Below, piece after piece: positions 4,295 to 34,690 of a stretch of DNA of 57,720 bases. The stretch is from Paracoccaceae bacterium. GTDB lineage: Bacteria; Pseudomonadota; Alphaproteobacteria; Rhodospirillales; Rhodospirillaceae. Under the pieces are notes generated by a model, which made no database searches, was not told the DNA's origin, and saw nothing but the letters and a program-made list of their open reading frames with translations. The DNA is taken from contig JAGREB010000035.1 in NCBI GenBank assembly GCA_020446775.1, positions 1 through 57,720 on the forward strand, written 5' to 3'. The position numbers and the translations under genes were made by a program. Each line of letters begins with the position of its first letter. Within the stretch, counting starts at the first letter, position 1.

Positions 4295-5311
4295 ATGGCA
4301 CCAGCTGAGACAGTCAGGTTCATTCGCGCCGACACTTCGGCGCTTGACCGTCCACAACTCTGTATACATGTGGATACGGAAGAGGAATTCGATTGGACGG
4401 GTCCGTTTCGGAGAAGCAATACGTCTGTTCAAGCCATTTCAAATTTGCGTCTCGCGCATGATATTTTCCGCCGCTACAGCCTAAAACCGGTTTATATCGT
4501 CGATTATCCGGTCGCCTCGAGCGAACTTGCGAGGCAGACCCTCGGCCCCTGGGTTAACGGTGGCGAATGCTTGATCGGAGCCCAATTGCATCCTTGGGTT
4601 ACGCCGCCGCACGAAGAAGTCATATGCTTAGAGAATAGTTTTCCCAGCAACTTGCCGCGCGATCTTGAGCGGCGAAAACTTGAATGCCTCGCCAAAACGA
4701 TTCGTGAAAATCTCGGAGAGAATCCGAGAGTATACAAGGCTGGTCGGTATGGTCTTGATTTGGCTCGTATTGATACGCTTGTGGAGCTTGGGTTCAGAGT
4801 GGATACGAGCGTGGTTCCGTTCAAGAGCTTTGCCGGCAAAGGTGGCGGGCCAGATTTTTTCGGGCTCCCAGACCAGCCATTTTGGTCTTTGAAGTATCCC
4901 GATTTTCTATTCTTACCTGTTACGGGCAGCTTAATCGGGCCTTGGCGCAACATTGATCGCGCAAGTCTCGATAGGTACCTTTTCAGCGATACCGCTATAA
5001 GATGGAGAATTCCTAGCGTGCTTGCGCGCCTCGGCTTGGTCGAACGCATCAGTTTGTCTCCAGAGGGGGCCGACGAGAATGATATGATACGTCTAATGGA
5101 CAACTTGGTTGGCCACGGGAAAAAGGTTTTATGCCTTTCGTTTCACAGCCCGTCCTTGATGCCGGGGTGCACACCATATGTATCGGACGAACGTAGCCTG
5201 CAACGATTCATTTACATCCTTGAATCGGTTCTCGAGCATTTCTTTGGAAAGCTGAACGGCGCGCCGACAGACTCACTGACGCTTCGATCTCAACTCGGAA
5301 AAGGCGTGTAG
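4295..5311 (+). CDS. WalW-like protein of the glycoside hydrolase/deacetylase superfamily
   Basis: A 338-aa ORF. The N-terminal IHVDTEEEFDW motif is one I recall from WalW-type polysaccharide-deacetylase-fold proteins. The functional call is weak. Confidence 0.5.
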   Translation: MAPAETVRFIRADTSALDRPQLCIHVDTEEEFDWTGPFRRSNTSVQAISNLRLAHDIFRRYSLKPVYIVDYPVASSELARQTLGPWVNGGECLIGAQLHPWVTPPHEEVICLENSFPSNLPRDLERRKLECLAKTIRENLGENPRVYKAGRYGLDLARIDTLVELGFRVDTSVVPFKSFAGKGGGPDFFGLPDQPFWSLKYPDFLFLPVTGSLIGPWRNIDRASLDRYLFSDTAIRWRIPSVLARLGLVERISLSPEGADENDMIRLMDNLVGHGKKVLCLSFHSPSLMPGCTPYVSDERSLQRFIYILESVLEHFFGKLNGAPTDSLTLRSQLGKGV

Positions 5312-5417
5312 AAGCCGGCCGCGCGCTGCAAGGCGGCGCGTTCAACGTTCCACATTGGAAAAGCGCCCGAACTCCAGCCGCTAAAACGCCGTGAGCGACG
5401 CCTCCCGCATGCTCGCC

Positions 5418-6737
5418 TTACACAGCGGGAATAATCTTTCTGCCGGAGCCAATTCGCTTTGGTCGCAGTTTCGAGTTCGAGTTCATCCCGGACCCCGCTT
5501 CAACGTTTCGGGATATGTACGTGTGCGCAGAAATACCCGTGCAAACCATCAGGAAGAATGTATCCGAGTAGGCGACAGATAGCGCGCCCCCACCGGTAGC
5601 GAAAACCAAGAGACAGGTGCGTACCGCGATTGCAAGGTCATACGCCCATCGGCGATCGGGGTGCGATTTTCCAAGGCGGATAAGATCACCCATTGCCCGC
5701 CATACAGAAAACAACACTACAAGATAAATAATCAAGCCAGGCCAGCCCTGTTCTCCGAGAACTTGGAAATAGATACTGTGAGCGGCATGGCTTTCGACGC
5801 CAGGCAAGTATCGGTCCCAGATCGCCGGCTGAATTGGCCCCTCGAAGCCGGTTCCGAAAGGGAAATCGGCCGCAGCTTGAAATGCGACGAGCCACGCGTC
5901 AACTCGTCCCTGAAACGAAGAATCTTCCGAAGCGTTTGAGATCGTCGATATTCTATCCAGATATTGTTGGGGAACAAACTGCATTGCCATCGGCCCGAGC
6001 ATCGCCAACGCGATCACGATATACAAAATTTTTCGCTTATGCTGAAAAAGTACTGAACCCAGGGCGATGGAAAGCGCAATAAATCCACCTCTTGAAAAAG
6101 TCCCTATGATCGCGATTGACGTGAAAATCATTTGGACGATCAAACCTGCGCGAAGAATTCTCGACTGCAAATTTAATAAGAGATAGTTGAGAAATGGAAT
6201 CGTCATCGCAAGCGCGAGTGCGAGGTGATTCCGGTCGGATAATTGACTTTGTTCAGGACCGTTGATGATTCCCGCACCAGCGGTGACGATCGTTCTAAGC
6301 CCTCCCCAAAGGCCGTAAAACCCTAAGGAAACGAGAATTACCCATATTAGTCCATTGATTCGCACGGGATTGTTGACGACAACCGTACATAACGCGATCA
6401 GCAACATGATTTTTGCGTTTCGGTCCCACATGTTTGGCGCCGTGGGCGAAACAGCGAATACAAATGTCGTCAACGTATACCAACCAACGAATACCGATAC
6501 CCATATCAGGAACCGACTAAAGCGGAAATTTTTCAAGTCACTTGGATTCATCAGCACCGCACCAATCGTTACGATCGCAATGATCTGATTGATCGGCTGG
6601 TCAGCAAGAAACCCGAAAACCATTCGATGAGGATTCAGGAGCGAAACCCATGCCCAAAGGTATATCCCGATTACGGGAAACCTTATGGTCATCGACACAA
6701 ATATACTAAGATAGAGAATTAGAAATATATCGCGCAT
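5418..6737 (-). CDS. O-antigen ligase/Wzy_C-like membrane protein, exosortase A-associated type
   Basis: A 439-aa polytopic membrane ORF. The N-terminus MRDIFLILYL...IGIYLWAWVSLLNPHR matches the pattern of the exosortase-A-associated O-glycosylation ligase family (TIGR03097-like). Confidence 0.8.
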   Translation of the reverse strand: MRDIFLILYLSIFVSMTIRFPVIGIYLWAWVSLLNPHRMVFGFLADQPINQIIAIVTIGAVLMNPSDLKNFRFSRFLIWVSVFVGWYTLTTFVFAVSPTAPNMWDRNAKIMLLIALCTVVVNNPVRINGLIWVILVSLGFYGLWGGLRTIVTAGAGIINGPEQSQLSDRNHLALALAMTIPFLNYLLLNLQSRILRAGLIVQMIFTSIAIIGTFSRGGFIALSIALGSVLFQHKRKILYIVIALAMLGPMAMQFVPQQYLDRISTISNASEDSSFQGRVDAWLVAFQAAADFPFGTGFEGPIQPAIWDRYLPGVESHAAHSIYFQVLGEQGWPGLIIYLVVLFSVWRAMGDLIRLGKSHPDRRWAYDLAIAVRTCLLVFATGGGALSVAYSDTFFLMVCTGISAHTYISRNVEAGSGMNSNSKLRPKRIGSGRKIIPAV

Positions 6738-6971
6738 CGTTCGTGAAACTACACGTACACCGATGCATTGTCGACATTCTCATGCCGGTTTAGGTGGCGC
6801 CTATGCGATCGTGCCACCAGCCGACGGCAGAGCCCGAAACTAGGTTTGGGGACGACAAAAAGGTTGGAATCGCGAGGAGTGAATAATCGACGTGATCAAG
6901 AACTAATTCGGTTCTAAGTGGGCGGATTCAGCCGTGCCACGAAATGAAAACTCGCGTACGCCACTTGCGTC

Positions 6972-8744
6972 TCAAAGCCGCCATTTGGGCGTAACCGTCC
7001 AATTGTTTGTCAACTGCCCCCTGCTCCAGGCCAAGGCATCGGTCACATCTTCAACGCCAATCATGTCGATGAAAACCAGAGCACCCCGTGTATATTGCAA
7101 ATAGTTTTTGTCTTCGCTGACAAGCCAGTCGTCCGACGTCGGAACTTGGTAGTTATAAATTTCCGCGTTGAGCGACCACGCGTCCGCCCAACTCGAAACC
7201 CACTCGACCTTGCCCGGAGGACTGAGCGATAAATCGTATGGTGTGGCATATGCACGAGGCCAACCGCGCTTGTTGGACGTTCTCGCGATTTGTGTGTCTA
7301 TCTGCCATTTAAATTGCGGTAACCAAGACTCAAATCCCATCAAGATTACCCATCCCATGACCGAGGAAACAAAATCTTCCTGCCATGGTTTTGTAATCCC
7401 GTCGTATCCACGTGGATCGCGAAGCGCACGAAATATCTTTCGCGGCGGGTAGTCGCTTTCAACGAATTCGCCTTGAAACCATATCCTCGTGCGTTCAAGC
7501 AAATCTACCCAATATTTCTTGGGCAACAGCCAGCGCGGCGGCTCCGCCGGCGAAACGTTAGCTGCCTGACTAAGCGTGCGAAGCGACCACGCGAACGAAC
7601 GCGATTGAGGAATACTTAGCCGATACTCGGGAACCAAAGATCCGCGATTCCAATTTGCGGCGAATTGAAGCTCTTCCAAATAATACGGATCGCCGGTAAG
7701 GAGATACGGAAGGTAGGCGACAGCAGGTTGGTGCGATGAATCGACCTTAAAATCCGAGGCCAGAGTCTTAATCTTGTTCTTGCTGGGCGCTACATCCGGA
7801 TACCAAGTCGCCTGCGAATAGACATCAAGGTCAATGGGCGCACCGGTCTCGAGGTCGCGCATATGCCACGGAATGGTTCCCGCAGCTTCAGCTTGGGCAA
7901 TAATAACATCTCGATCAGCAGGCGCTTGGCTTACGATATATTGCGCCTGCCACCCAGTCACCATCCCGATATCGTCCCGTTCGCCTGTGCCGGGCATGTA
8001 AAGCTCGAGCCCGGCCGACCCCATAATTTCGTACTTAAAACGATTTGCATTGCGCTTCTCATTTTTGGGCGCGGCCGTTCGCTGTGGTGAAGCGCCGATA
8101 CCAAGCGACTTGCCGCGTTCAGTTGGAGCAGGATTACCGAACAAGAGCTTCCCTGCATCGGTCAATTGCGGCGCAGCAGGCAATCCACCGGCAGTTGATG
8201 CTGATTGACTTTTACGTGAAGCGGCAGGGGCCTGAACGTTCGTTGCAGATATTGAGTGTTGGGATAAACCGAAGGGAGGCAGTAAATGGCTCTTAATCAA
8301 TTGCGAGACGTCTCCGACGACCGGCCGCGGCATAGATTGCCAGCGCCATCGCGAAAACCAGAAGTGTTTTGGGATTTGAATCGTCGCGAGCACCGTAGAA
8401 TCGCGATAAATTTTTGCAACGTATGCTTCTAAATGTTGGGGGTCTGCGCCCCACAAGCGGCCGAACTCGAATACGATTTCTGTTCTTTCACCATCGAGGT
8501 CAGGCCTAAAATGAACAACAAGCGGAAAATCTGGGCGTTGCGCCGCCCAGCATCCCTGAACAAAACCGCCGATCGGCGATTGAAAAGATCCGAGATCTAC
8601 ACCGGCCTGCAGCGTGTAACTGTACTCTTTACCGTGGTATTCAATGGTGACTGCGAGATTTGGCAGGGATTGGGCAAATGCCCGATCAGCTTGCAACGCA
8701 CAAGCGCCCACAGAACCGATGAAGCGGCGGCGATCATAAGTCAT
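6972..8744 (-). CDS. secreted protein of unknown family (paralog A), probable Tat signal
   Basis: The ORF track gives 6972..8807. ATG at 8744 gives MTYDRRRFIGSVGACALQADRAFA, a twin-arginine-type signal. The protein shares long conserved blocks with the next ORF (HFWFSRWRWQS, YMPGTGER, HQPAVAYLPYLLTGDPYYLEELQF, YTRGAL). I recognise no family. Confidence 0.8.
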   Translation of the reverse strand: MTYDRRRFIGSVGACALQADRAFAQSLPNLAVTIEYHGKEYSYTLQAGVDLGSFQSPIGGFVQGCWAAQRPDFPLVVHFRPDLDGERTEIVFEFGRLWGADPQHLEAYVAKIYRDSTVLATIQIPKHFWFSRWRWQSMPRPVVGDVSQLIKSHLLPPFGLSQHSISATNVQAPAASRKSQSASTAGGLPAAPQLTDAGKLLFGNPAPTERGKSLGIGASPQRTAAPKNEKRNANRFKYEIMGSAGLELYMPGTGERDDIGMVTGWQAQYIVSQAPADRDVIIAQAEAAGTIPWHMRDLETGAPIDLDVYSQATWYPDVAPSKNKIKTLASDFKVDSSHQPAVAYLPYLLTGDPYYLEELQFAANWNRGSLVPEYRLSIPQSRSFAWSLRTLSQAANVSPAEPPRWLLPKKYWVDLLERTRIWFQGEFVESDYPPRKIFRALRDPRGYDGITKPWQEDFVSSVMGWVILMGFESWLPQFKWQIDTQIARTSNKRGWPRAYATPYDLSLSPPGKVEWVSSWADAWSLNAEIYNYQVPTSDDWLVSEDKNYLQYTRGALVFIDMIGVEDVTDALAWSRGQLTNNWTVTPKWRL

Positions 8745-8877
8745 GACCGTTTGACACCCTTTTGCGCAAACGTATGGCAGCCCGCGCCTAGCATAACAAC
8801 CTTTCAACGAACCCCAAAGCGATCAACCGGTAATCCAGTTCAAGACTGCCAAGTGCAGTCCGATTGGCGGACCGGTA

Positions 8878-10971
8878 TTAGGCGCTGAATCGCCACTTGT
8901 AAGGAGGCGAATTTAACGTGCTCATTATGCCTGTCGCCCACGAAATGCGCTCCGACACATCGACATCAGTCAATCGCGCAATATAGGTCAGTGCGCCGCG
9001 CGTATAGGAAAGATATGTAAGATCGGAGCTCACGGCCCAGGTATCAGGATCTGCATCGACAAACCCCTGCTTTTCGCGATTGAGCTCCCATGCTTCCGCC
9101 CAAGATTCAACCCACGGAGAATGGGTATCCGCGCGAATATGTAATATATAGGGTGTTGAATAGGCCCTGTTCCAATCGCCGTCCCGGTCTGTCCGCGACA
9201 AAGTCGAACCGGCAAACCATTCAAAACTTCGCCTCCATTCCACAAATCCCATATCTAAGAGCCAGCCCGTAATCGCAACCAAGAATTCGTTTTGCCATGG
9301 CCGAAATTCGGTATCGGGAATCGAGCTCGTTACACGAAAAACTGAGCGTTCGGGAGAGAGCGCATCGATATAAACGTCTTCAAGATGATGGCGGTAAACT
9401 TCAAGCATGTCCGCCCAGTAGCTTCGCGGCATCAACCAAACTGGAGTGACATCCGGTGTTATGCGCGCACATTGAGCCATCGTTCGAACCGACCATGCAT
9501 ACTGGCGCGGCTGGCTGATTGATGGGCGATACGTTGGCGGAAGCTCACCATGATTCCACGTTGCCTGAAATTGTAGCGCTTCAAGAAAAAACGGGTCGCC
9601 TGTCAACAGATATGGCAGGTATGCCAGCGCCGGTTGATGTGCTGAATCGAGTGTAACGGGCGTATCGGGTGCCGTTGCCTTGATCCAGGGGGATCCCGTT
9701 CGGGAATCATAGTACCAAGTGGCCGTCGGATACGTCCGAAAATCGAATGGTGAGCTCGTTGTTTCGTCGCGTATATGCCAGGGCATCGTGGCACTCGCTT
9801 CAGCTTGAGCCATTAGCTTATTCAACGCAGACACGGATCCCGTACATATATATTCTGCCTGCGGATCGGTTACCGGTCCGATTTCGGGCCGTTCACCTGT
9901 GCCCGGCATGTAAGGATACAAACCGGCAAGTCCCATGATTTGATATTCGGAAATATCCGGCGAAATTCCGAGCGATTCATTTTTCTGCTCGCGAACCGCA
10001 GGGGCGCGGGTATTTGGACTTGGATCGGCGGCTCGTTTTGCCGACGCGACCCTTGCAAGTAACGCAGGTATTGCAATTGGCACGTTGTAGCGCTGCAGGA
10101 TCAGATTCACATCTGAAGAACTAAGCGATCCACCCGATAGGCCTTTCGTCAGCAACGAAATGATGCGTGCACTGTCTACGACCGCGTTATCACCGCCAGT
10201 TGCCGGCGGCGGGCTAACAATTGGAGGAGGAGGCGACACCACAACCGGCGGGGGCGGAGGTGGCGACACCACAATGGGCGGAGGAGGAGGTGGTGGTGAT
10301 ACCGGCGGAGGCGATACCGGCGGTGGAGGTGGCGGCGATACGGGCGGAGGAGGAGATGGTGGTGGCGATACTGGCGGTGGAGGTGGCGGCGATACCGGCG
10401 GTGGCGACGTCGCGCTGCTTGATTGATATGCATTCACGTCGTACGGAGGCAACAGCCCGGCGTCAATAAGGTCTCCGGTCGCTGTAACGATCGGTCGTTG
10501 ACTTGATTGCCAGCGCCACCTTGAAAACCAATAGTGTACTGGTATTTCAAGCGTAGCGAGTGTGCTTCCGTTATCGCGGATCGTCACTGAATAGGCACCG
10601 AGATTTTCCGGGTTCAGATTCAGGAAATTCCCGAGCTCAAATACTACCTCTTGGCGGGTATCGTCGCGATCAGGGCGAAAGTAGACCTTCAAGGGGATAC
10701 CCTGGACGTCTACTTTGATACATCTTTGAGTGAAGCCGCCGATCTCTGACACAAAATCACCGAGATCTTCCCCATCAATTTGGCGGGCGGTGAATGTTTC
10801 TCCGTCCAATGTGATCTCGACGGTTAAGGGGCCGAACGTTTGGCCGTGCGCCGGGGACGCGGAAAGTGCGCCCGTCACGGTTGCGGCCGCGCCGCCGGCT
10901 TCGAGGAGCAGGCGGCGTGAAATTGATAAAGGCTTGCCTTGGTACCGCGCCTTGGTCATCCGCGCCTGCAC
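8878..10971 (-). CDS. secreted protein of unknown family (paralog B) with poly-proline linker, probable Tat signal
   Basis: A 697-aa ORF. The N-terminus ...SISRRLLLEAGGAAATVTGALSASPAHG resembles a Tat signal. It has the same two conserved domains as 6972..8744, joined by a stretch of about 68 aa made of S/V/I/P only. Confidence 0.85.
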   Translation of the reverse strand: MQARMTKARYQGKPLSISRRLLLEAGGAAATVTGALSASPAHGQTFGPLTVEITLDGETFTARQIDGEDLGDFVSEIGGFTQRCIKVDVQGIPLKVYFRPDRDDTRQEVVFELGNFLNLNPENLGAYSVTIRDNGSTLATLEIPVHYWFSRWRWQSSQRPIVTATGDLIDAGLLPPYDVNAYQSSSATSPPPVSPPPPPPVSPPPSPPPPVSPPPPPPVSPPPVSPPPPPPPIVVSPPPPPPVVVSPPPPIVSPPPATGGDNAVVDSARIISLLTKGLSGGSLSSSDVNLILQRYNVPIAIPALLARVASAKRAADPSPNTRAPAVREQKNESLGISPDISEYQIMGLAGLYPYMPGTGERPEIGPVTDPQAEYICTGSVSALNKLMAQAEASATMPWHIRDETTSSPFDFRTYPTATWYYDSRTGSPWIKATAPDTPVTLDSAHQPALAYLPYLLTGDPFFLEALQFQATWNHGELPPTYRPSISQPRQYAWSVRTMAQCARITPDVTPVWLMPRSYWADMLEVYRHHLEDVYIDALSPERSVFRVTSSIPDTEFRPWQNEFLVAITGWLLDMGFVEWRRSFEWFAGSTLSRTDRDGDWNRAYSTPYILHIRADTHSPWVESWAEAWELNREKQGFVDADPDTWAVSSDLTYLSYTRGALTYIARLTDVDVSERISWATGIMSTLNSPPYKWRFSA
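10204..10407 (-). repeat. degenerate GC-rich tandem repeats encoding a (V/I)SP(3-7) poly-proline linker inside the CDS 8878..10971
   Basis: The plus strand reads ggcggtggaggtggcggcgataccggc-like units repeated with variation. They translate on the minus strand to SPPPVSPPPPPPVSPPPSPPPPVSPPPPPPVSPPPVSPPPPPPPIVVSPPPPPPVVVSPPPPIVSPPP (residues 189-256). Confidence 0.9.
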
Positions 10972-11219
10972 GCCTTATTTCTATGCATTATAAATAACAT
11001 CCGGAGATACTCGCGCTTTAGGCGAAATTATAAGTTATTTAATCAACAATCACACGTGAGTCCACTCAAAGATTGGTTCAAATCACGCACCTAGTTTGGT
11101 GTCCGAATGAGCGGGGAATGGCGACTTTGTGTCGGTGTACAAACGTTGCCTCGTCGAAAATTGCCGCAATATGGGCAAACACAGTTCGGCACAGAAGTCG
11201 GGTTCCGTTCAGAACCGCT

Positions 11220-12704
11220 TCAATCCCTTTCCACGGCCAATATCTTCAATCGGGCGATAAGGATTGATTCGGGTCCGCCCGGACGCCCGACTGCGAGCCA
11301 CAAAATCGCAAGGCTTACGATATATGTTGTCGCTCCAAGCAAGATATCGCAGATCAATGAAATCGCCGGGACTCCGGTTAATGCTCCATGGCATCGCCCC
11401 AATACAAAGATCATAACGATTGAGGCGATCATGGGTCGCCAAATCAACCGAAGCCCCCTGGTTGGACTCACATCAAGGCGGATCAGCAAGTATGCCACCA
11501 TGAATACGGTGAAAATAAACGCGATTACGAACCGCACTTCCGCGATAAATTTTGGACTCAAGAACGACCCGACAATAAACGCACCGACCAATAGTGTGGT
11601 TGCATGCGCAAAGTGAATCAGAGACGCATCCTTTTCGCGATGCAAGGTGGTGTACATATCTTGCATGACGAATATGAGACCCATGCATGCTCCCGCGAGC
11701 GCGAGCCACGCAAACGTATCTACACCATCTACCCATTTTGACCCGAGCAAAACCAATACGAGATCGCTTGATATGCAATAAAGTCCCGTACCGATTGCAA
11801 ATACGGCTAGAAATGCCAAACCGAGGACTTCGAGGAATACGTTTTGTAATTCGGCCTTCGAACTCTTGAATCTTGCATACCCCGGCAAAAGGGCGCGGTT
11901 GAGGGGCTCGAATATTTCTTGAATCGGCATAAATGAAACTGTCGAGATGACCGAATAAATTCCCAACGCATCGGCCGCCCCCAACCTTCCCATGGCGATC
12001 GCGTCGCCTCGCTGGGCCCCAAACAAGCTGCCATTGGTCAACATCATCCAGCGTGAAAACGACCACAATTTCTTAACGTATCGGGACGAAAACCGGGGGC
12101 GGTAGTCACTCATCGTGTAACTCAAGATCACCGCCACCAACGACGTGGCCGGGCCGGCGATCGCCAATGCATGATAATCGCGAAATATCAGCGCAAGGGT
12201 GATCGTCAAGATCACGCCCAAACCTTTGCGGTACGTCCAATACTTGAATTCACGGTTGAATTGCATGTCCTTGCGGAATTTCACGACACCGATGTTTTCG
12301 AACCCCAAAATAACGGGTTGCAGGGCGATTATCGCGAGGACGTTGATGACACGATCGTCTTGAAAATACGAAGCGACGGCGGGCATCATGACCAGCGTAA
12401 CCACTGCCAATCCTGCACCAATAAGAATTTGTATTGTCCAGGCCGAATTGTAGAAGTCGCGGTCCGGATTGGTTTCTCGTAGGATTGCCTGATCGACACT
12501 GAAATCGACGACGTTGGTAATAAAAGTTACAAACAAGTAGGCCATTGCCATCAAGCCGAAGTCTTCCGGATCGAGCAGCCGGACGAGAACGAGAGTGCTG
12601 ATCAGGCCGAGCGAACGCATGAACCAGCGCATAATCACCATCCACAGTGCGCCTTTGGCCATCTGATTGCGTAGAAGATCAAAACCGGGTTTGCTATTGG
12701 TCAT
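11220..12704 (-). CDS. oligosaccharide/polysaccharide flippase (Wzx, MOP superfamily)
   Basis: A 494-aa polytopic ORF. The N-terminus ...KGALWMVIMRWFMRSLGLISTLVLVRLLDPEDFGL is typical of the Polysacc_synt family. Confidence 0.85.
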   Translation of the reverse strand: MTNSKPGFDLLRNQMAKGALWMVIMRWFMRSLGLISTLVLVRLLDPEDFGLMAMAYLFVTFITNVVDFSVDQAILRETNPDRDFYNSAWTIQILIGAGLAVVTLVMMPAVASYFQDDRVINVLAIIALQPVILGFENIGVVKFRKDMQFNREFKYWTYRKGLGVILTITLALIFRDYHALAIAGPATSLVAVILSYTMSDYRPRFSSRYVKKLWSFSRWMMLTNGSLFGAQRGDAIAMGRLGAADALGIYSVISTVSFMPIQEIFEPLNRALLPGYARFKSSKAELQNVFLEVLGLAFLAVFAIGTGLYCISSDLVLVLLGSKWVDGVDTFAWLALAGACMGLIFVMQDMYTTLHREKDASLIHFAHATTLLVGAFIVGSFLSPKFIAEVRFVIAFIFTVFMVAYLLIRLDVSPTRGLRLIWRPMIASIVMIFVLGRCHGALTGVPAISLICDILLGATTYIVSLAILWLAVGRPGGPESILIARLKILAVERD

Positions 12705-12912
12705 TGAGTACGGCCATTGGCACCAATTCGATCGGGCTTTCAGAAAAGTTATGCGGGCTCGCGTACGCCATTAACATCAAACGCGCAAAGCATCAAAATA
12801 CTCATTGAATTCTAGTTCGTTTAAGCGTTATGCAAAGCGCTTTGAAAATAAATGTTGGTTCCATTCCGGTTGTAAGAAGCCTCTTACGCCGTGTTCGATT
12901 GATGGGTCGAGG

Positions 12913-26770: not shown

Positions 26771-27877
26771 GTGCCAGATGGCGTCGATTTGAGACCACTC
26801 CCCCCTCTCGAAAACTTGGCAAGAGACTGGCAAGAGCTGGAATGCCGATCTTGCGGTTCGTTTTTTACCTCGTGGACGTGGATCGGCGCATGGCTCGACA
26901 CCGTCATACAAGAGCGCAACGCGGCGGCGAATCTTTCTTTGTTGACTGTGCGCGACGGGAAGCCGGTTGCGATGGCGATTCTCGGCCGTCGCAACGCGTG
27001 GACATGGCCGATTGGGCGCGAATTTGGGGCAGTGAATCAGATTGGCGACTCAGCGCTAGACGGCATTTGGATTGAATATAACGATTTGCTCGCCGCGACC
27101 GGGCACGAGAAGCATTCGCTTGACGCACTACTTCAGTATATCGCGGCAGATCGAACGCCCGGTGCGGTACAAATCCCAAAAGGAGTTCGGTGGGCGGGGC
27201 TGAGCGCCGCTAGCGTCGAGCGCATTCGCGCATTCGATTTGGCCTTCACCATTCGACGAGCGTCGAAATGCAGGTGGGTCAATCTTACTCAAGACCATGG
27301 CGACATCGATCTTTATCTTTCGCACTTGAGCAGCAACTCGCGGCAACAAATTCGCAGATCACTTCGCCTCCTATTCGGGGATAAACGGCCGAGGATCGAA
27401 CGCACCGTGCCCGAGACCCTTGCAAGCGATCTGCAAAAATTCAAGCAGATGCATGTCGATGCGTGGCGCAAACGTCGGGGCCATGACGGCGCTTACGCAA
27501 ATCCGTTGTTCGAAACGTTTCTTCATCGCCTTATATCTGCCGGTATCGCCAACGGTAGTGTCGAGCTTCTCAAGATCAACAGCGATTCTACCTTGGTCGG
27601 CATTCTGATCAATTTCATCTATCGCGGATCCGTATACGCATATCAGAGCGCATTTCAGTACTATGACGACAATCGAATAAAACCGGGAATTGCTTCACAC
27701 GCCGCAGCGATCGCAGATTTTGGCGCGAAGGGAATGGAGGCCTACCGCTTCATGGATGGGGCGGGACGCTACAAGGAATCCCTAGGTACAAATCAGGAAG
27801 TGCTCTATTGGGTTGATATAGCGAAACCAACTTTATTCACGAAATTGACATTTGCGATCGCGAACTGCCTCTCGTGA
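26771..27877 (+). CDS. CelD/BioF2-like GNAT-fold acyltransferase (FemAB-related)
   Basis: A 368-aa ORF with a GTG start. L..W.ELE....GSFFTSWTWIGAWL and the C-terminal YRFMDGAGRYKESLG resemble the CelD-like family. Confidence 0.6.
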   Translation: MPDGVDLRPLPPLENLARDWQELECRSCGSFFTSWTWIGAWLDTVIQERNAAANLSLLTVRDGKPVAMAILGRRNAWTWPIGREFGAVNQIGDSALDGIWIEYNDLLAATGHEKHSLDALLQYIAADRTPGAVQIPKGVRWAGLSAASVERIRAFDLAFTIRRASKCRWVNLTQDHGDIDLYLSHLSSNSRQQIRRSLRLLFGDKRPRIERTVPETLASDLQKFKQMHVDAWRKRRGHDGAYANPLFETFLHRLISAGIANGSVELLKINSDSTLVGILINFIYRGSVYAYQSAFQYYDDNRIKPGIASHAAAIADFGAKGMEAYRFMDGAGRYKESLGTNQEVLYWVDIAKPTLFTKLTFAIANCLS

Positions 27878-28100: not shown

Positions 28101-29990
28101 CTAGACCTCGATAATTTTCGTAACGATCCGTTCCGCAGCCGCGGCCGCGCTTTCCTGTATCGTATCGACATAAACGTCAGGCGCTTCGGGCCGCTCATAC
28201 GGACTATCGATGCCCGTGAAATTCTTGATTAGGCCGGCGCGGGCTTTTTTGTAGAGGCCCTTCACATCACGTCGCTCGGCCTCGGCAAGCGTGGCATCGA
28301 CAAAAACTTCAATGAACTCGCCTTCCGCCATCATCGCGCGCACCATCTGCCGCTCCGCGCGAAACGGCGAGATGAACGAGCACAACACGACCAGTCCGGC
28401 GTCGGCCATCAACTTCGCGACCTCGCCGATGCGGCGGATATTCTCGACCCGATCGGCGTCCGTGAAGCCTAGATCTTTGTTGAGTCCGTGGCGAACGTTG
28501 TCGCCATCGAGCAGATATGTGTGCAAACCGCGCGCGTGAAGTTTTTGTTCGACGAGATTGGCAACGGTCGATTTGCCGGCGCCCGACAGGCCCGTGAACC
28601 AAATGACCCGAGGCGCTTGGCCCTTGAGTGCGGCGCGCGCTCGGCGGTCAATCGAGGTCGGCTGCCAATGGATATTGTGCGATCGTCTCAATGCAAAATG
28701 AATCATTCCACCCGCGACGGTCGCATTCGTGATGCGGTCGACCAGGATAAAGCTGCCGAGGTCGCGGTTGACGTCATAAGGCTCGAACGCGATCGGTTGA
28801 TCGAGCGCGATATTGCAGACGCCGATATCGTTGAGCTTGCATGTTTTGGCGGCCAAATGCTCGAGCGTGTTGACGTTGACCAAAAACTTGAGATCGGTGA
28901 CATCCGCCGAAACGACCTTGGTTGCCGTCTTCAACCAATATTGGCGCCCCGGCAGCATTGGTTCGTCGCCGAGCCATATGATCGTCGTTTCAAATTGCTG
29001 TGCCACCTCCGGCGGGGCTTCGCTATCCACAATCACGTCGCCGCGCGAGCAATCGATTTCCCGGTCGAACGTAATGGCGACGGATTGGCCGGTGCCGGCA
29101 ACCGGCAAATCCCCGTCCATCGTCACAATACGCGCGACGAGTGCGTCTTGACCCGATGGCAGAACGCGGACTCGATTGCCCGGCGCGACTTGGCCTGCGA
29201 CAATTCGCCCGGTGAATCCGCGAAAAGAGAGACCGGGGCGGTTGACCCATTGCACCGGCATGCGGAACGGGGCCGTCGCGTCATCCGAGCGTATTTCGAC
29301 CGTTTCGAGATGGTCGAGCAAAGTCGGACCCGAGTACCATGGCATCGATGCTGATGTGCAGGCGACGTTGTCCCCGCGTAGGCCTGAAACAGGAATCGCC
29401 GTGACGTTGTTGAGTTCGATGCGATTGGCAAAGGCATCGAAGTCGGCCGCGATTTTATCAAAAATCTCCTGGGCAAAATCCATCAAGTCCATCTTGGTAA
29501 CCGCGAGAACAACATGGCGGATTCCCATGAGTGCGGCCAGATACGCATGACGACGCGTTTGCGTTTGCACGCCGTACCGTGCGTCGACGAGGATCACCGC
29601 CAATTCGACGTTCGACGCGGCGGTCGCCATGTTGCGCGTGTACTGTTCGTGGCCGGGCGTATCGGCGACGATGAATGAGCGCTTACCGGTCGTGAAATAT
29701 CGATATGCGACATCGATCGTGATGCCTTGTTCGCGCTCGGCCGCCAATCCATCGACCAACAAGGAAAAGTCGATGGCCTCGCCGGTCCCGGCCCCACCTG
29801 TTGTGATATCCGAAAGCTGATCTTCGAAAACAGCCTTGGTGTCGTAGAGCAGACGCCCGATCAACGTCGACTTGCCGTCATCGACTGAGCCACACGTCAT
29901 GAAACGCAAGCGGCTCTTTTCGGCGGGCGGCGAAGCCGATTTGGGCGACTGGGTATTCCAATGACCGCTTTCGGCGACTGGCGATACCAT
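28101..29990 (-). CDS. cysNC: bifunctional sulfate adenylyltransferase subunit 1 / adenylylsulfate kinase (CysN-CysC fusion, NodQ-type)
   Basis: GTPase G1 motif [16 protein letters not shown] and G3 motif DTPGHEQY, then the APS kinase P-loop [14 protein letters not shown] at 29990 lies 1 nt after the cysD stop. The ORF track start is 30047. Confidence 0.95.
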
Positions 29991-29991
29991 C

Positions 29992-30915
29992 TTAGAAGTA
30001 ACCTTCTTGCTTTTTGCGCTCCATCGAGCCGGATTGATCGCGATCAATCACGCGGCCCTGGCGCTCGGATGATTTCGCTGCGAGCGTTTCTCGGATGACA
30101 GCATCAATCGTCGCAGCCGAACTTTCGATGGCCCCCGTCAGCGGATAGCAACCGAGCGTTCGGAAACGCACCGACTTCATGAACGGGCGTTCGCCTTGAT
30201 CCAGCGGCATGCGCTCGTCATCGACCATGATCCAGGCCCCGTCGCGGCGCACCACGGGACGTTCCGCCGCGAAATAGAGCGGAACGATTGGAATATTTTC
30301 GAACCGGATATATTGCCAAATGTCGATTTCCGTCCAATTGGACAGCGGAAAAACACGGATCGATTCACCTTTGCGGATTTTCGTATTGAAAAGTCGCCAA
30401 AGCTCGGGCCGCTGATTTTTCGGATCCCAGCGATGATGGGGGGTCCGAAACGAAAATATTCGCTCCTTGGCGCGGCTCCGCTCCTCGTCGCGTCGCGCGC
30501 CGCCCAACGCGGCATCGAAACCCCACTTTTCTAACGCCTGCTTCAACGCCTGCGTTTTCATGACGTCGGTGTGAACCGCAGACCCATGCGTAAATGGGCC
30601 GATCCCTTGCGCCAATCCGTCGGGGTTTGTGTGAATCAACAATTCCATCCCTGCTTCCTGGGCCATGCGATCACGGTGCGCGTACATGGCCCTGAACTTC
30701 CAGGTGGTATCAACGTGCAACAGGGGGAACGGCGGTGCGGCGGGATAAAAAGCTTTTTGGGCAAGGTGAAGCATGACCGCCGAGTCTTTGCCGATTGAAT
30801 ACATCATGACCGGCCGCGCCATCTCGGCAACGACCTCGCGCAAGATATAGATAGACTCCGCCTCAAGTTCCTTCAGGTGGGCGAGAGGCGCGAAAATGCG
30901 ATTGGACGGCGACAT
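29992..30915 (-). CDS. cysD: sulfate adenylyltransferase subunit 2
   Basis: [18 protein letters not shown]...[14 protein letters not shown] (PP-loop). The ORF track extends to 31119, but ATG at 30915 gives a normal CysD/NodP length of about 307 aa. Confidence 0.9.
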
Positions 30916-31259
30916 TTGGCGTGTCACGGGACGGTGGATTGGCCGTGTACTCAGCAACATGGGGGCTCGGCTCCGACTGCAGAGGAGCGCCGTGTAAAAC
31001 GTGACGCGCCCGCCGCAATGGGATTCGAGCCTCGGACCCGAAAGCAGCAGACCGTCGGCCCGTTTATTTGGCGAATTTGCGCCGAGAGAGAATAAAATTC
31101 TGTCGGTTTCGATTAGCACGCGCCTCCCTCATCCGTCCATGAACTGAAAAGAAAGCGCTGCTGATGTAAGAATCGATTGGCGTGTTCACCGAATCGTGTA
31201 GAAGCTATCTAAGCTCACACTGCTCATCCAATTTGGTTTTCGAGCCTGTCGCCTTTGGA

Positions 31260-32426
31260 ATGAAGATCCTTTACCACCATCGTACGCTGTCCAAGGACGG
31301 TCAGAACGTTCACATCGAGGAATTGATCGCGGCATTTCGCCGGGCTGGTCATGAGGTCGAAGTCGTCGGGCCGTCTAGCCACGCCAAATCGGAATTTGGT
31401 TCAGATGGCGGTACTTTGTCGCGTTTACGGCAGGCATTACCGCAATGGATTTCTGAAATCCTGGAGTTTGCGTATTCGCTGCTTGCGTTTGCGCGCCTGT
31501 ACCGCGCCGCGAAAGCTTTCAAGCCCGATTTCCTCTATGAGCGCCATAATCTATACCTGATGGCCGGGGCATGGCTGCGCCGCCTGACAGAATTGCCATA
31601 CATCTTGGAGGTCAATGCGCCGCTATACGACGAGCGGGCCGCAAACGGTCAAGCACGCCTCGGCGCCCTTGCCAGATGGACCGAAACTTCGGTTTGGAAA
31701 ACCGCCGATATAGCGCTGCCGGTGACCCAGGTTCTCGCGGATATTATGATGTCTGCCGGTACGCCGCGGGAACGCATTCTTGTCGTTCCCAATGGCATAA
31801 ATCCGGCCGAATTTGCGAACGGCACGCCAAAGCGCGACCTCAGGAGTGAATTGGGTGTCGCAGGAAGTATCGTTATCGGCTTCACCGGCTTCGTCCGAGC
31901 TTGGCACGGCCTTCCGGGCGTTGTGGATGCCATGGCGGATTTGGTGCCCGAAATCGACTGCAAGTTTTTGATTGTCGGCGACGGCCCTGCGGTGAGCGAT
32001 ATCAAACAGCGCGCAGCTGAGAAAAACATCGCCGATCGCGTTTTCATTACTGGAATTATCAAACGCGAGGACATGTCTGCATATGTTGCGGCTTTCGATA
32101 TTGCGATGCAGCCGCAGGCCACGCCTTATGCCTCGCCGCTCAAATTGTTCGAATATCTCGCCCTCGGCAAACCGGTGATCGCGCCGGACCAGCCAAATCT
32201 ACGCGAGATTTTGACGCACGAAGACAACGCGCTGTTGTTTGATCCCCATGACGACGCGTCGTTGGGCGTCGCGCTGACCCGTCTGCTGCGCGATCCCGAC
32301 CTCAGAGCGAGATTGGGAACGAGCGCGAAAGCGACGATCTCGCGGCGCGGCTTGACGTGGGATGACAACGCACGCCGCGTTGTCGAAAGAGCGGGTCGCC
32401 TGGTCGAAACCGGGACCGGCCGTTAA
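31260..32426 (+). CDS. glycosyltransferase family 4 (GT-B)
   Basis: MKILYHHRTLSKDGQNVHIEEL... and FLIVGDGP...ASPLKLFEYLALGKPVIAP. The ORF track start at 31182 is a 5' extension. Confidence 0.85.
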   Translation: MKILYHHRTLSKDGQNVHIEELIAAFRRAGHEVEVVGPSSHAKSEFGSDGGTLSRLRQALPQWISEILEFAYSLLAFARLYRAAKAFKPDFLYERHNLYLMAGAWLRRLTELPYILEVNAPLYDERAANGQARLGALARWTETSVWKTADIALPVTQVLADIMMSAGTPRERILVVPNGINPAEFANGTPKRDLRSELGVAGSIVIGFTGFVRAWHGLPGVVDAMADLVPEIDCKFLIVGDGPAVSDIKQRAAEKNIADRVFITGIIKREDMSAYVAAFDIAMQPQATPYASPLKLFEYLALGKPVIAPDQPNLREILTHEDNALLFDPHDDASLGVALTRLLRDPDLRARLGTSAKATISRRGLTWDDNARRVVERAGRLVETGTGR

Positions 32427-33397
32427 GCCGCCACCCTCAGATAGTGCACGCTGAACAGCTGTTGGGCGTCGACCCAGTAGTGGACCGGGGTATAGCCGGC
32501 CGAGGCGACCAGATCGCGAAAACCGTCAATGGTGTACTTGTATGAGTACTCGATGTGAATCCGCTCGCCCGACCTGACGCGGAAACCGCGGCCGGCCGCG
32601 TGAATGAGTTGGTCGACCTCGCTGCGCAAGAAGATTTCCATCCTGCCCCGTTCAGGAACGTAACCGGCATCGTGAACAAAGCGGGATACGTCGATATCAC
32701 CATCGAGTTCCCGATTGATGCGATGGAGAACATTGAGCGTGAATTCAGCAGTGATACCCTGGCTATCGTTGTAGGCCGCATTTAACAGCGACGGTTCTTT
32801 TTGCAGGTCGGCGCCGATCAGCAGATCGGAACGTGGGCCGCACAAGTGCCGCACACGTTCCAGGAACGCGACCGCTTCCGAATTCGTCATATTGCCGATG
32901 GTCGAGCCGGGAAAAAACGCGACCCGCTTGTCGTACCCGTCTTCGAGCACCTGTGGCAGATCGAAATTCGACGTGTAGTCGGCACAGACCGCGGCGACGG
33001 GGATCGACGGATGGGCCCGGGCAACCGTCTCCGCGGCGCTCTGCAGATGTTCGGCCGAAATATCGATTGGAACATAAGTTTTGGGGCTAACCAAAAGCTC
33101 GAGCAGCACGCGAATCTTGTCGCTCGACCCGCTGCCGAGCTCGACGATTTGAGCGCGCGGCCCGATCAGCGCAGCAATCTCCGCGGCGTTGTCGTCGAGA
33201 ATCCGCGTCTCGGTGCGCGTCGGATAATATTCCGGCAGTTCGCAGATTTTGTCGAACAGCGTCGAACCGGCAGCGTCGTACAGGTACCGGCAGGGGATCG
33301 ATTTCGGCGACGCCGACAGTCCGGAAATCACGGCCTGTTCGAAGCTTTCGACGACCGCCGGCGCCCGGTCGTAAAATTTCGCGGTTGCGTGCCTCAT
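32423..33397 (-). CDS. egtD: L-histidine N-alpha-methyltransferase (ergothioneine biosynthesis)
   Basis: LFDKICELPEYYPTRTE, VELGSGSSDKIRVLLE, YVPIDIS, FFPGSTIGN and LLIGADLQK..LLNAAYNDSQGITAEFTLN are EgtD (Methyltransf_33) signature blocks. Confidence 0.9.
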   Translation of the reverse strand: MRHATAKFYDRAPAVVESFEQAVISGLSASPKSIPCRYLYDAAGSTLFDKICELPEYYPTRTETRILDDNAAEIAALIGPRAQIVELGSGSSDKIRVLLELLVSPKTYVPIDISAEHLQSAAETVARAHPSIPVAAVCADYTSNFDLPQVLEDGYDKRVAFFPGSTIGNMTNSEAVAFLERVRHLCGPRSDLLIGADLQKEPSLLNAAYNDSQGITAEFTLNVLHRINRELDGDIDVSRFVHDAGYVPERGRMEIFLRSEVDQLIHAAGRGFRVRSGERIHIEYSYKYTIDGFRDLVASAGYTPVHYWVDAQQLFSVHYLRVAA

Positions 33398-34690
33398 TCA
33401 AACCTCCCGCGCCAAACGGATACCGCCAAAACACCATCGCGCGTGAGGCGGAAAGAAATTGCGATAAGTCGCACGCGCGTGACCGGGCGGCGTGATCGCG
33501 GCAGAACCACGCAGCACCACTTGATTCGACATGAACTTGCCGTTGTATTCGCCGACCGCTCCGGACGACGTTTTGAAGCCCGGATAAGGCAAGTAGGCGC
33601 TTGCCGTCCATTGCCAAACCTCGCCGAACAACTGACACAGGCGGTCACTCCCCTGCGCCGCTGCCGGGTGCACGGCGCATGGCCGGGCCGCATCGTCAGC
33701 CGCCCCCACGTTCACGGCCGCGTGTTCCCATTCGAATTCGGTCGGCAAACGCGCCCCGGCCCAGCGCGCGTAGGCGTCGGCCTCATAATGGCTGACGTTG
33801 ACGACAGGTTCGGCCGGATCGAGGGCGCGTTCACCGTGCAGGGTGAAGACCCGCGACCCGCCGTCTTCAGTTTCGCGCCAATACAGCGGCCCATGCCAAT
33901 TCTGCGATTGAACCGCCGCCCAGCCGTCCGAAAGCCACAGTTCGGGCCGCCGGTAACCGCCGTCGGCGATGAAATCGAGGTATTCCCCGCAGGTGACAAG
34001 CCGATCCATCAATGCAAATGGCTGCAACCAGACCGCATGACGCGGACATTCGTTGTCGAAGGCGAAACCCGCTCCGGCGTGACCGATTTCGCACTTGCCG
34101 CCGTCGAACGCGACATAGTTTGCGGCCGGGGTTTCGCGCGCCGCACGCGGTTGAGCGGCGCGATAGACCGGATTGAGCGGCGTTTGCGACAGGACATGTT
34201 TGATATCCATCAGGATCAATTCCTGATGCTGTTCCTCATGATGCAAGCCGAGCTCGATCAAGGACGCGGTCTTCGCCCACGCATCGCCGCTGGCCGTCCC
34301 GACAAACGCGATCAGCGCATCGTCGACGCTATCGCGATAGGCGACGACGTCAGCCACCGACGGCCGGGCGATCAGGCCGCGCTCCGGTCGGGGATGGCGC
34401 GCTCCGGCAGCCTCATAATACGAATTGAACAGGTAGCCGTAGTGCGGGTGAAACGGCCGCGCACCGCCATGGGGAATCAGCACAAACGTCTCGAAGAACC
34501 ATGTCGTGTGCGCCAGGTGCCACTTCGTCGGGCTGACGTCGGGCATCGACTGGATGGTCATGTCCTCAGGAATCAGACCATCCGTCAGCGAAACTGTCGC
34601 GGCACGAACGCGCTTTATCCGATCGATGAAAGCGGCCCGGTCGCCCGACACCGCCAACTTGCCGGCATCAGTCGCGGGTGAGCGCGGCAT
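33398..34690 (-). CDS. egtB: ergothioneine biosynthesis sulfoxide synthase EgtB (DinB_2 plus FGE-sulfatase domains)
   Basis: MPDVSPTKWHLAHTTWFFETF (DinB-like His motif), ELILMDIKH, and the C-terminal VWQWTASAYLPYPGF...LRGSAAITP (FGE-like domain). The stop abuts the egtD start. Confidence 0.9.
   Translation of the reverse strand: MPRSPATDAGKLAVSGDRAAFIDRIKRVRAATVSLTDGLIPEDMTIQSMPDVSPTKWHLAHTTWFFETFVLIPHGGARPFHPHYGYLFNSYYEAAGARHPRPERGLIARPSVADVVAYRDSVDDALIAFVGTASGDAWAKTASLIELGLHHEEQHQELILMDIKHVLSQTPLNPVYRAAQPRAARETPAANYVAFDGGKCEIGHAGAGFAFDNECPRHAVWLQPFALMDRLVTCGEYLDFIADGGYRRPELWLSDGWAAVQSQNWHGPLYWRETEDGGSRVFTLHGERALDPAEPVVNVSHYEADAYARWAGARLPTEFEWEHAAVNVGAADDAARPCAVHPAAAQGSDRLCQLFGEVWQWTASAYLPYPGFKTSSGAVGEYNGKFMSNQVVLRGSAAITPPGHARATYRNFFPPHARWCFGGIRLAREV

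Follow-up and report, generated by a model that had tools for sequence, protein, structure and literature searches.

Tandem genes of an unannotated, probably PL26-like family in an alphaproteobacterial exopolysaccharide locus: candidate Tat-exported glycan-cleaving enzymes with relatives in phages

Results

The A and B genes and their products

The DNA analysed here, 57,720 nucleotides long and called the window below, is contig JAGREB010000035.1 of assembly GCA_020446775.1, which is assigned to a Paracoccaceae bacterium. It harbors an exopolysaccharide (EPS) locus of the XrtA/PEP-CTERM type, in which two neighbouring genes, named A and B, lie between the genes for a flippase and for a polymerase- or ligase-like membrane protein. 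An initial annotation had described A and B as tandem two-module paralogues with twin-arginine-like signals, unplaceable in any family, and had guessed that they process a polymer in the periplasm. We propose that they are probably enzymes cleaving the EPS of their own locus, and that they share their family with phage proteins. The genes and their parts are listed here; the sister family mentioned is introduced below.

6972..8744, minus strand: gene A, 590 amino acids; twin-arginine translocation (Tat) signal, beta-sandwich, linker and (alpha/alpha)6-type domain; open reading frame (ORF) and database call P0001
8673..8744, minus strand: predicted twin-arginine signal peptide of A, residues 1-24, MTYDRRRFIGSVGACALQADRAFA followed by Q; cleavage site inferred from AxA
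8265..8663, minus strand: beta-sandwich module of A, about residues 28-160; aligned to the sister family's central beta-sandwich
8058..8264, minus strand: linker of A, about residues 161-229; A/P/S/T-rich, disordered
6975..8057, minus strand: C-terminal helical domain of A, residues 230-590, about 12 helices; putative catalytic domain
8878..10971, minus strand: gene B, 697 amino acids from GTG 10971; layout as A, linker much longer
10843..10971, minus strand: predicted twin-arginine signal of B, …LSISRRLLLEAGGAAATVTGALSASPAHG followed by Q; read from the sequence
10432..10836, minus strand: beta-sandwich module of B, about residues 46-180; 40% identity to the A module
9970..10431, minus strand: linker of B, about 150 amino acids; (S)PPPPPPV run
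8881..9969, minus strand: C-terminal (alpha/alpha)6-type domain of B; 43% identity to the A domain

Both ORFs were recovered on the minus strand exactly where the initial annotation had placed them. The longest mechanically called ORF of A reaches TTG 8807; its likely start is ATG 8744, with AAAGGG just upstream and in agreement with P0001 (590 amino acids). For B, ATG 10959 is the more likely start than GTG 10971, because the resulting product of 693 amino acids matches database call P0105 (693 amino acids) and the spacing of the ribosome-binding site is better. As judged by BLASTP, A and B are tandem paralogues with similarity far above chance: their C-terminal modules share 43% identity over 380 amino acids (E 2e-99) and their N-terminal modules 40% over 172 amino acids (E 2e-36), which bears out the two-module paralogy proposed initially. 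The conserved motifs quoted at that time were all found, and most of them coincide with family-invariant columns.

The architecture was read from an alignment of 72 family members and from an AlphaFold2 model of A (predicted local distance difference test, pLDDT, 85.9; predicted template modelling score, pTM, 0.85). In the model, the N-terminal module is a beta-sandwich with nine strands within residues 30-136 at pLDDT >95. Its invariant residues are R80, D82, R87, E89, E93, H127, R132, W133, R134, W135 and R140. Residues 162-229, within the linker, have pLDDT <50. The approximately 12 helices of the C-terminal domain are read as six hairpins of an (alpha/alpha)6 toroid; the key residues of this domain (R256, E286, H338, Y344, E357, R382, W386, R389, R488) are conserved in the family, in the sister family and in phage members. 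Length of the inter-domain linker varies from 15 to 184 amino acids across the family, and in B it includes a (S)PPPPPPV run of about 70 residues (10201-10407), encoded by imperfect 24/30-nt tandem repeats at 10223-10406 (Tandem Repeats Finder). The alignment has 50 invariant columns, 20 of which are Arg (11) or Trp (9). All 50 are kept in both A and B, and on this ground the idea that either paralogue is a pseudo-enzyme was rejected.

Both proteins start with an RR motif, a hydrophobic stretch and an AxA-type site, as expected of Tat substrates (DRRRFIGS…AFA followed by Q in A; SISRRLLLEAGG…AHG followed by Q in B). An RR pair followed by any residue and two hydrophobic ones is present in 65 of the 72 aligned homologues, and the remaining ones resemble truncated gene calls. 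With the twin-arginine-like signals thus confirmed, we predict that both proteins are probably exported by Tat. Two other identities were considered and rejected. A carries VGAC near its signal, as a lipoprotein might, but the Cys is not conserved family-wide. Neither protein looks like a PEP-CTERM substrate, as A ends in …TPKWRL and B in …PYKWRFSA, with no hydrophobic tail or sorting signal.

Database searches

A Pfam scan of A and B at E<=1 gave no family apart from one spurious NUT match. Neither protein matched any NCBIfam model, the exosortase-A-associated ones included, and the genes thus stand outside the XrtA/PEP-CTERM marker set, as had been presumed. PHROGs returned nothing for A, B, the phage members and one sister-family protein; searches of PDB sequences with A, with the family and sister profiles and with a broad superfamily profile gave noise only. 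The Pfam models of glycanases known from EPS operons (PL5 AlgL, GH8 BcsZ, GH39 PslG, heparinase II/III, alginate lyases) were not matched by A or B either. Neither A nor B therefore gave a confident direct match to any characterised family, and to this extent the initial failure to place them stands for Pfam, NCBIfam, PHROGs and PDB sequences. It does not stand against the clear homology to a RIFT-barrel sister family described below.

At least 485 homologues were found among 5.8 billion clustered proteins; none is functionally named (a few are labelled 'hypothetical protein') and none has a Pfam domain. HMMER searches of 1.84 billion representatives yielded 3,098 matches at E<=1e-3, 802 of them at E<=1e-30. 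In the literature on PcRGLX, on PL26 structure and on exosortase-linked hydrolases we found no description of the family. In long relatives, the family region is joined to fn3/Ig-like modules, to a ConA-like lectin domain or to PG_binding_1, all of them typical accessory modules of secreted carbohydrate-active enzymes (CAZymes). In three loci from metagenome-assembled genomes (MAGs) of Acetobacteraceae-like and other Alphaproteobacteria (L053 7238-9679, L055 7916-11560, L057 9056-11560), the family domain follows a tandem array of Ig-like repeats, 3 to about 9 in number and each about 90 amino acids long; the repeats match X25 and bMG6 weakly, and no Tat motif is present at the called start.

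Relationship to PL26

A Foldseek search of the A model against PDB gave no match at E<=1e-3. The leading folds were all (alpha/alpha)6 carbohydrate enzymes: GH76, GH88, GH105, AGE-type epimerases, GH127, GH116, GH94 and exo-heparinase. A sister family was recognised through two distant relatives encoded in related loci: L003 (873 amino acids), which carries PF19501 (the PcRGLX-like N-terminal RIFT barrel), and L034 (963 amino acids), which ends in RTX repeats. Searches with the L003 and L034 relatives gave RTX-repeat matches or noise and nothing more informative. The sister family comprises at least 353 proteins, most of them with PF19501 and many with RTX repeats, and its source names include 'RIFT barrel domain-containing' and 'YetA-like'.

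Alignment of the family with the sister family by hhalign (99.9%, E 2.7e-35, 474 columns) covers both the beta-sandwich and the helical domain. In pairwise comparison, A and the sister-family protein P0121 are 23% identical (E 3e-16). A model of a sister protein (pLDDT 89.1, pTM 0.92) has barrel, beta-sandwich and helical domain in this order. In PDB, this model was matched best, in full-length alignments, by the three PcRGLX entries of PL26 (E 2.7e-6 to 1e-5, prob 1.00); dextran dextrinase, GH121, GH105 and GH88 came next. The RIFT barrel PF19501 was not found in A or B by Pfam at E<=1, and their beta-sandwich starts right behind the Tat signal; one family member, P0377, has a RIFT barrel immediately upstream of the family region.

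Residues kept in both families include W133, R256, E286, H338, Y344, E357, R382, W386, R389, W480 and R488, with Asp at the E286 and E357 positions in the sister family. To judge from this set, the active site could be that of either a His/Tyr/Arg lyase or a two-carboxylate hydrolase. PL26 is an exo-rhamnogalacturonan lyase family (EC 4.2.2.24) that cuts acidic polysaccharide by beta-elimination (PMC13501991, PMC8787155). On sequence and model comparison, we consider it probable that the unannotated family of A and B is part of the PcRGLX/YetA-like (PL26-like) superfamily, whose carbohydrate-active enzymes are built of a beta-sandwich and an (alpha/alpha)6 toroid.

Sister-family genes also occur a few kb from Tat-type family genes, beside Acyl_transf_3 genes (L003 7107-9728, L034 13988-16879), so some genomes hold Tat-exported and probably type-I-secreted versions close together. 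A plasmid tblastn search found two Skermanella RTX-type sister-family genes alone, in uninformative context.

Phage members of the family

In a Foldseek search of predicted viral structures (BFVD), the A model had one strong match, A0A6J5SAL0 (E 4.8e-20, TM 0.75, 24% identity), a protein of 430 amino acids from an uncultured Caudovirales phage. At least 118 viral contigs of IMG/VR encode relatives, with 28-39% identity over residues about 30-585 and thus over both domains; many of these contigs are about 40 kb long, and their samples are presumably soil and rhizosphere metagenomes. GenBank phages contain one relative, gp39 of EBPR siphovirus 1 (779 amino acids), encoded between terminase and head protein. 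It is directly followed by gp40 (696 amino acids), annotated 'glycoyl hydrolase' (both at L146 10684-15114), so that this phage has two neighbouring candidate glycan-active genes.

In 65 distinct phage proteins, R80, E89, W133, R134, W135, R140, H338, D352, E357, R382, W386, R389 and R488 are kept at 100%. By this retention of invariant residues, the phage proteins are members of the A/B family and not of the sister family, and many of them are located in tail modules. Of 80 phage members, just 2 show RR close to the N-terminus. Most have at their beginning a coiled coil or a short beta-segment, for example MPDPITNEITLTVTG, and in 64 of the 80 a Pro-rich linker follows within the first 130 residues; from its sequence, this N-terminus looks virion-anchor-like. 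The PEPTPPP-type linker of phage proteins precedes the beta-sandwich, whereas the bacterial linker follows it.

Recurrent phage neighbours bear the PHROGs labels tail fibre (three clusters), tail protein, portal, terminase and scaffold, as well as internal virion protein with transglycosylase domain (cluster v27). In several long loci of the ~40-kb contigs (e.g. L110, L114, L121), the family gene ends the structural block. In a neighbor-joining (NJ) tree rooted on the sister family, most phage members are basal and the Tat-type bacterial members derived; as the tree has no support values, it is merely suggestive as to the direction of transfer. The alpha/alpha toroid is a recognised but rare fold of phage depolymerases, at about 1% of cases (PMC11326577, PMC12491483).

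Genomic context

The genes flanking A and B are:

5418..6737, minus strand: TIGR03097 exosortase-A-associated Wzy/O-antigen-ligase-like membrane protein (TIGR03097 E 2e-109; Wzy_C and DUF5935); downstream neighbour
11220..12704, minus strand: MOP-family (Wzx-type) flippase (Polysacc_synt_3 E 3.7e-62); upstream neighbour

These family-model matches agree with the flippase and exosortase-associated ligase-like flanks described initially. All four genes, in the order wzx-B-A-wzy, are co-directional with gaps of 130-250 bp; a promoter and terminator scan of 5300-12900 gave counts not above those of shuffled sequence and found no terminator-like site in the minus-strand gaps among them. Further on in the window are genes for XrtA-EpsI, an AsnB-type amidotransferase, FemAB, an XrtA deacetylase and an ATPase, and also for an outer-membrane protein, a tyrosine kinase, a chain-length determinant and an exporter. 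Nine of ten neighbours scanned match NCBIfam models, eight of these being XrtA/PEP-CTERM-system families.

To place the window among related loci, we used a motif-seeded scan with one genome per species, in which neighbours were counted within 10 kb. It returned 61 loci, all from MAGs; most of these are Rhodospirillaceae-like or belong to other Alphaproteobacteria, and a genome often holds several copies. A polysaccharide-type neighbour is present in 36 of the 61 loci, core Wzx/Wzy/XrtA-system genes in 28, a TIGR03097 homologue in 18 and a Wzx homologue in 15. Bacterial members are enriched in Wzx/Wzy/XrtA loci. In twelve loci lacking EPS genes, the neighbours are housekeeping genes of mixed kinds.

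A rough NJ tree groups A with copies beside TIGR03097 genes and B with long-linker copies. Of the latter, some border the XrtA export cluster next to a helix-turn-helix gene and CysNC/CysD, some are divergent from a polysaccharide pyruvyl transferase gene near a TonB-dependent receptor, and some form a tandem trio near regulators. Two pairs of abutting loci each form one XrtA supercluster of about 40 kb (L016 and L006 on JAYRJU010000002.1, 401614-445467; L036 and L022 on JBFWVA010000002.1, 213707-257560), with one A-like and one B-like gene about 20 kb apart, hence non-tandem. In another locus (L002), A-like and B-like copies stand on either side of wzx. Because the pair recurs in other MAGs, it appears to be old and retained, and A and B are probably two old lineages that are not redundant.

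Some further features of the window deserve mention. A CysN/CysC fusion (GTP_EFTU and APS_kinase) and a CysD-like gene lie amid the EPS genes at 28101-31119 (minus), flanked by a FemAB/GNAT-type gene (26771-27877) and a family 4 glycosyltransferase gene (GT4, 31182-32426); in related MAGs such a pair is directly beside B-like genes (e.g. L063 11885-14703). Synthesis of 3'-phosphoadenosine-5'-phosphosulfate (PAPS) inside an XrtA locus hints at sulfated EPS, but no sulfotransferase was identified. Right after the EPS region, at 32423-34690 (minus), a gene for an EgtD-like methyltransferase (Methyltransf_33, E 3e-106) adjoins one for an EgtB-like protein (DinB_2 and FGE-sulfatase), a pair that looks like ergothioneine biosynthesis. 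The G+C content is about 0.50-0.55 over the EPS locus (about 1-28000) and about 0.60-0.62 over 32000-57720, with a step at about 28-32 kb. Finally, the 338-amino-acid protein encoded at 4295-5311 (plus) has no Pfam match and recurs in family-bearing EPS loci (cluster c5, 11 related loci).

Discussion

In the reading that we favor, A and B are soluble periplasmic glycan-cleaving enzymes, lyases or hydrolases, which process the probably anionic EPS of their own locus. We regard this as the likelier account on the strength of sequence comparison and predicted structure, and the judgement applies to the statement as a whole: a Tat-exported periplasmic pair that cleaves glycan and acts on the EPS of its own locus. 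The initial guess of a periplasmic polymer-processing enzyme has thereby become the best-supported reading, by virtue of the fold, the PL26-like homology, the phage members and the EPS context. An anionic substrate is suggested by the many invariant Arg residues, together with the pyruvyl-transferase and PAPS-synthesis neighbours in related loci and in the window.

A possible course of events is as follows. A and B would fold in the cytoplasm and be exported by Tat, their signals being cut at the AxA site. The beta-sandwich would pack onto the toroid and form a cleft of invariant Arg, Trp, His, Tyr and Glu residues. This cleft may bind the probably anionic EPS, flipped by Wzx and polymerised by the Wzy-like protein, and cut its glycosidic bonds. 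The chemistry might be beta-elimination, with His338/Tyr344 and an Arg neutraliser, or acid/base hydrolysis by Glu286/Glu357. Cleavage could set the chain length, clear polymer stranded in the periplasm or release the product. The two paralogues may cut different linkages, or one may act as an endo- and the other as an exo-enzyme. In phage members, the same domain would serve as a depolymerase that is attached to the virion and destroys the receptor.

Comparison with known systems shows which parts of this arrangement are familiar. PcRGLX of PL26 and the YetA-like proteins (PDB 5XQG, 5XQJ, 5XQO; PF19501 for the first domain) are matched by the model of the sister family, which consists of barrel, beta-sandwich and helical domain; A and B share the last two with this sister family. 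In contrast to PcRGLX, A and B are without the RIFT barrel, start with a Tat signal and have sandwich and toroid separated by a long disordered linker; their substrate is presumably bacterial EPS and not pectin, and lyase chemistry is putative. Several EPS operons encode periplasmic glycanases thought to trim or clear polymer: AlgL (PL5), PslG (GH39), PelA, BcsZ (GH8) and ExoK (GH16). Like these, A and B are predicted to be exported, are putatively glycan-cleaving and are encoded within a biosynthetic locus. Unlike them, they are in none of those families, have another fold class and domain layout, appear to be exported by Tat, and form two paralogues in a Wzx/Wzy-type XrtA locus.

The single-domain (alpha/alpha)6 barrels of GH76, GH88, GH105 and AGE-family epimerases act on sugars (GH88 and GH105 on unsaturated uronates) and are the best direct fold matches of the model of A, but they lack the N-terminal beta-sandwich; the matches are weak (E 0.025 to 1, about 10% identity), and no relationship is seen in the sequences. 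In the colanic acid cluster, WcaM is a predicted Tat substrate of unknown role. It resembles A and B as a Tat-signal protein in a Wzx/Wzy-dependent EPS cluster, though its fold, a predicted beta-helix, is different and homology would not be expected. The phage members recall alpha/alpha-toroid phage depolymerases in their anchor-like or coiled-coil N-terminus, their linker and their putative enzymatic head, and several of them lie among tail-fibre genes. Unlike the known ones, the family has no PHROG match and comes only from uncultured phage contigs and an activated-sludge phage; A and B differ from these phage members in being cellular, Tat-exported by prediction and without a virion anchor. 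Already familiar, then, is an EPS-locus glycanase with (alpha/alpha)6 CAZyme fold and PL26-like architecture. New would be the loss of the RIFT barrel, the Tat export, the paralogue pair retained in XrtA loci and a family common to phage tail modules.

Several observations weigh against the glycan-cleaving interpretation. The best PDB fold match of A is weak (E 0.025, TM <=0.39), and PcRGLX is absent from the top 50 fold matches of the A model. The superposition of the sister model on PcRGLX is poor overall (TM 0.28-0.35, 9% identity). The link of A and B to PL26, though real, is transitive via the sister family, because no profile reaches PDB by sequence, and we were unable to map the putative catalytic residues of A and B onto PcRGLX. 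A recognisable tail-type gene lies within 4 genes in just 22 of 80 viral loci, and structural or packaging genes are present in 42 of 80; since annotation succeeded for ten neighbour clusters alone, the true numbers may be higher in both cases. Nothing in the analysis supports uronic acid in the EPS. The homologues are not mostly outside polysaccharide loci, yet 25 of the 61 bacterial loci have no polysaccharide neighbour and more than 100 homologues are phage-borne. In the genome scan the family is limited to a few dozen MAG assemblies, mostly of Alphaproteobacteria, a range too narrow for a core XrtA component, so we regard A and B as a lineage-specific accessory and not as a core XrtA marker. 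The family as a whole is known from sequences and predicted models alone.

Other roles are imaginable for the same proteins. They might modify the polymer without cutting it, as a C5-epimerase-type or other periplasmic tailoring enzyme would. The fold matches of A include AGE-family and cellobiose 2-epimerases, the locus encodes many tailoring enzymes (deacetylases, FemAB/GNAT-type transferases, an AsnB-like amidotransferase), and uronate lyases and C5-epimerases have common chemistry and sometimes common helical toroid folds. We nevertheless find such a role unlikely, as the nearest characterised relative, reached via the sister family, is a lyase, and members in phage tail modules suit a receptor-destroying enzyme and not an epimerase. 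The phage copies could also be virion-associated lysins and the bacterial ones remodellers of peptidoglycan that open the sacculus for EPS export. Peptidoglycan hydrolases are frequent on phage tails, and PG_binding_1 is fused to three long relatives (P0234, P0339, P0343), although this domain is often no more than a periplasmic anchor. What makes peptidoglycan an improbable target is that the same phage genomes already encode the internal virion protein with a lytic transglycosylase domain (v27), that A and B have no fold or sequence likeness to lysozyme, transglycosylase or amidase families, and that the bacterial neighbours are EPS genes and not cell-wall genes.

A catabolic function, in which foreign polysaccharides are degraded for nutrition or competition and the position in an EPS locus is incidental, would account for the loci without EPS neighbours, for several paralogues per genome and for the paralogue group near a TonB-dependent receptor. 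This very group, however, also adjoins the biosynthetic pyruvyl transferase gene, the A-like lineage repeatedly adjoins TIGR03097 genes, and A and B are co-directional between the Wzx and Wzy-like genes with no terminator-like site in the gaps, so that we give this possibility little weight. The proteins might, finally, only bind polysaccharide, for example as scaffolds that guide the chain from Wzy to the exporter, the phage forms being purely receptor-binding. The catalytic residues are so far putative, and many invariant Trp and Arg residues suit binding too. However, invariant His, Glu, Asp, Arg and Tyr residues in the family, in phage members and in a sister family of about 20% identity are more active-site-like, and the fold relatives are all enzymes; a non-catalytic role thus appears quite improbable.

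We also entertain, as a tentative and rather doubtful extension of the glycan-cleaving interpretation, that A and B are domesticated receptor-destroying enzymes of phages. Among uncultured Alphaproteobacteria, a toroid tail depolymerase that folds in the cytoplasm would in one group have lost its virion anchor, gained a twin-arginine signal, duplicated and become the dedicated pair of periplasmic glycanases for the floc EPS of the XrtA/PEP-CTERM pathway. Export by Tat would suit a protein that is already folded.

Conclusions

XrtA/PEP-CTERM loci are what drives environmental and wastewater bacteria to flocculate and to form biofilm matrix, and we know of no polymer-processing enzyme assigned to these systems. 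A and B are concrete candidates for such an enzyme. Their family, with about 3,100 representatives at 50% identity, escapes the models of Pfam, NCBIfam and PHROGs, so that its copies in bacteria and in phages alike are at present annotated as hypothetical proteins. The occurrence of the same putative active-site scaffold in phage tail modules and in host EPS loci may offer a route to new EPS depolymerases, and possibly a way of matching phages with EPS types in uncultured soil bacteria. That Tat export accompanied the co-option of a cytoplasm-folding phage domain is a directly testable idea. Should the proteins prove active, they would establish a new family of lyases or hydrolases in CAZy, common to phages and to the EPS loci of their hosts.

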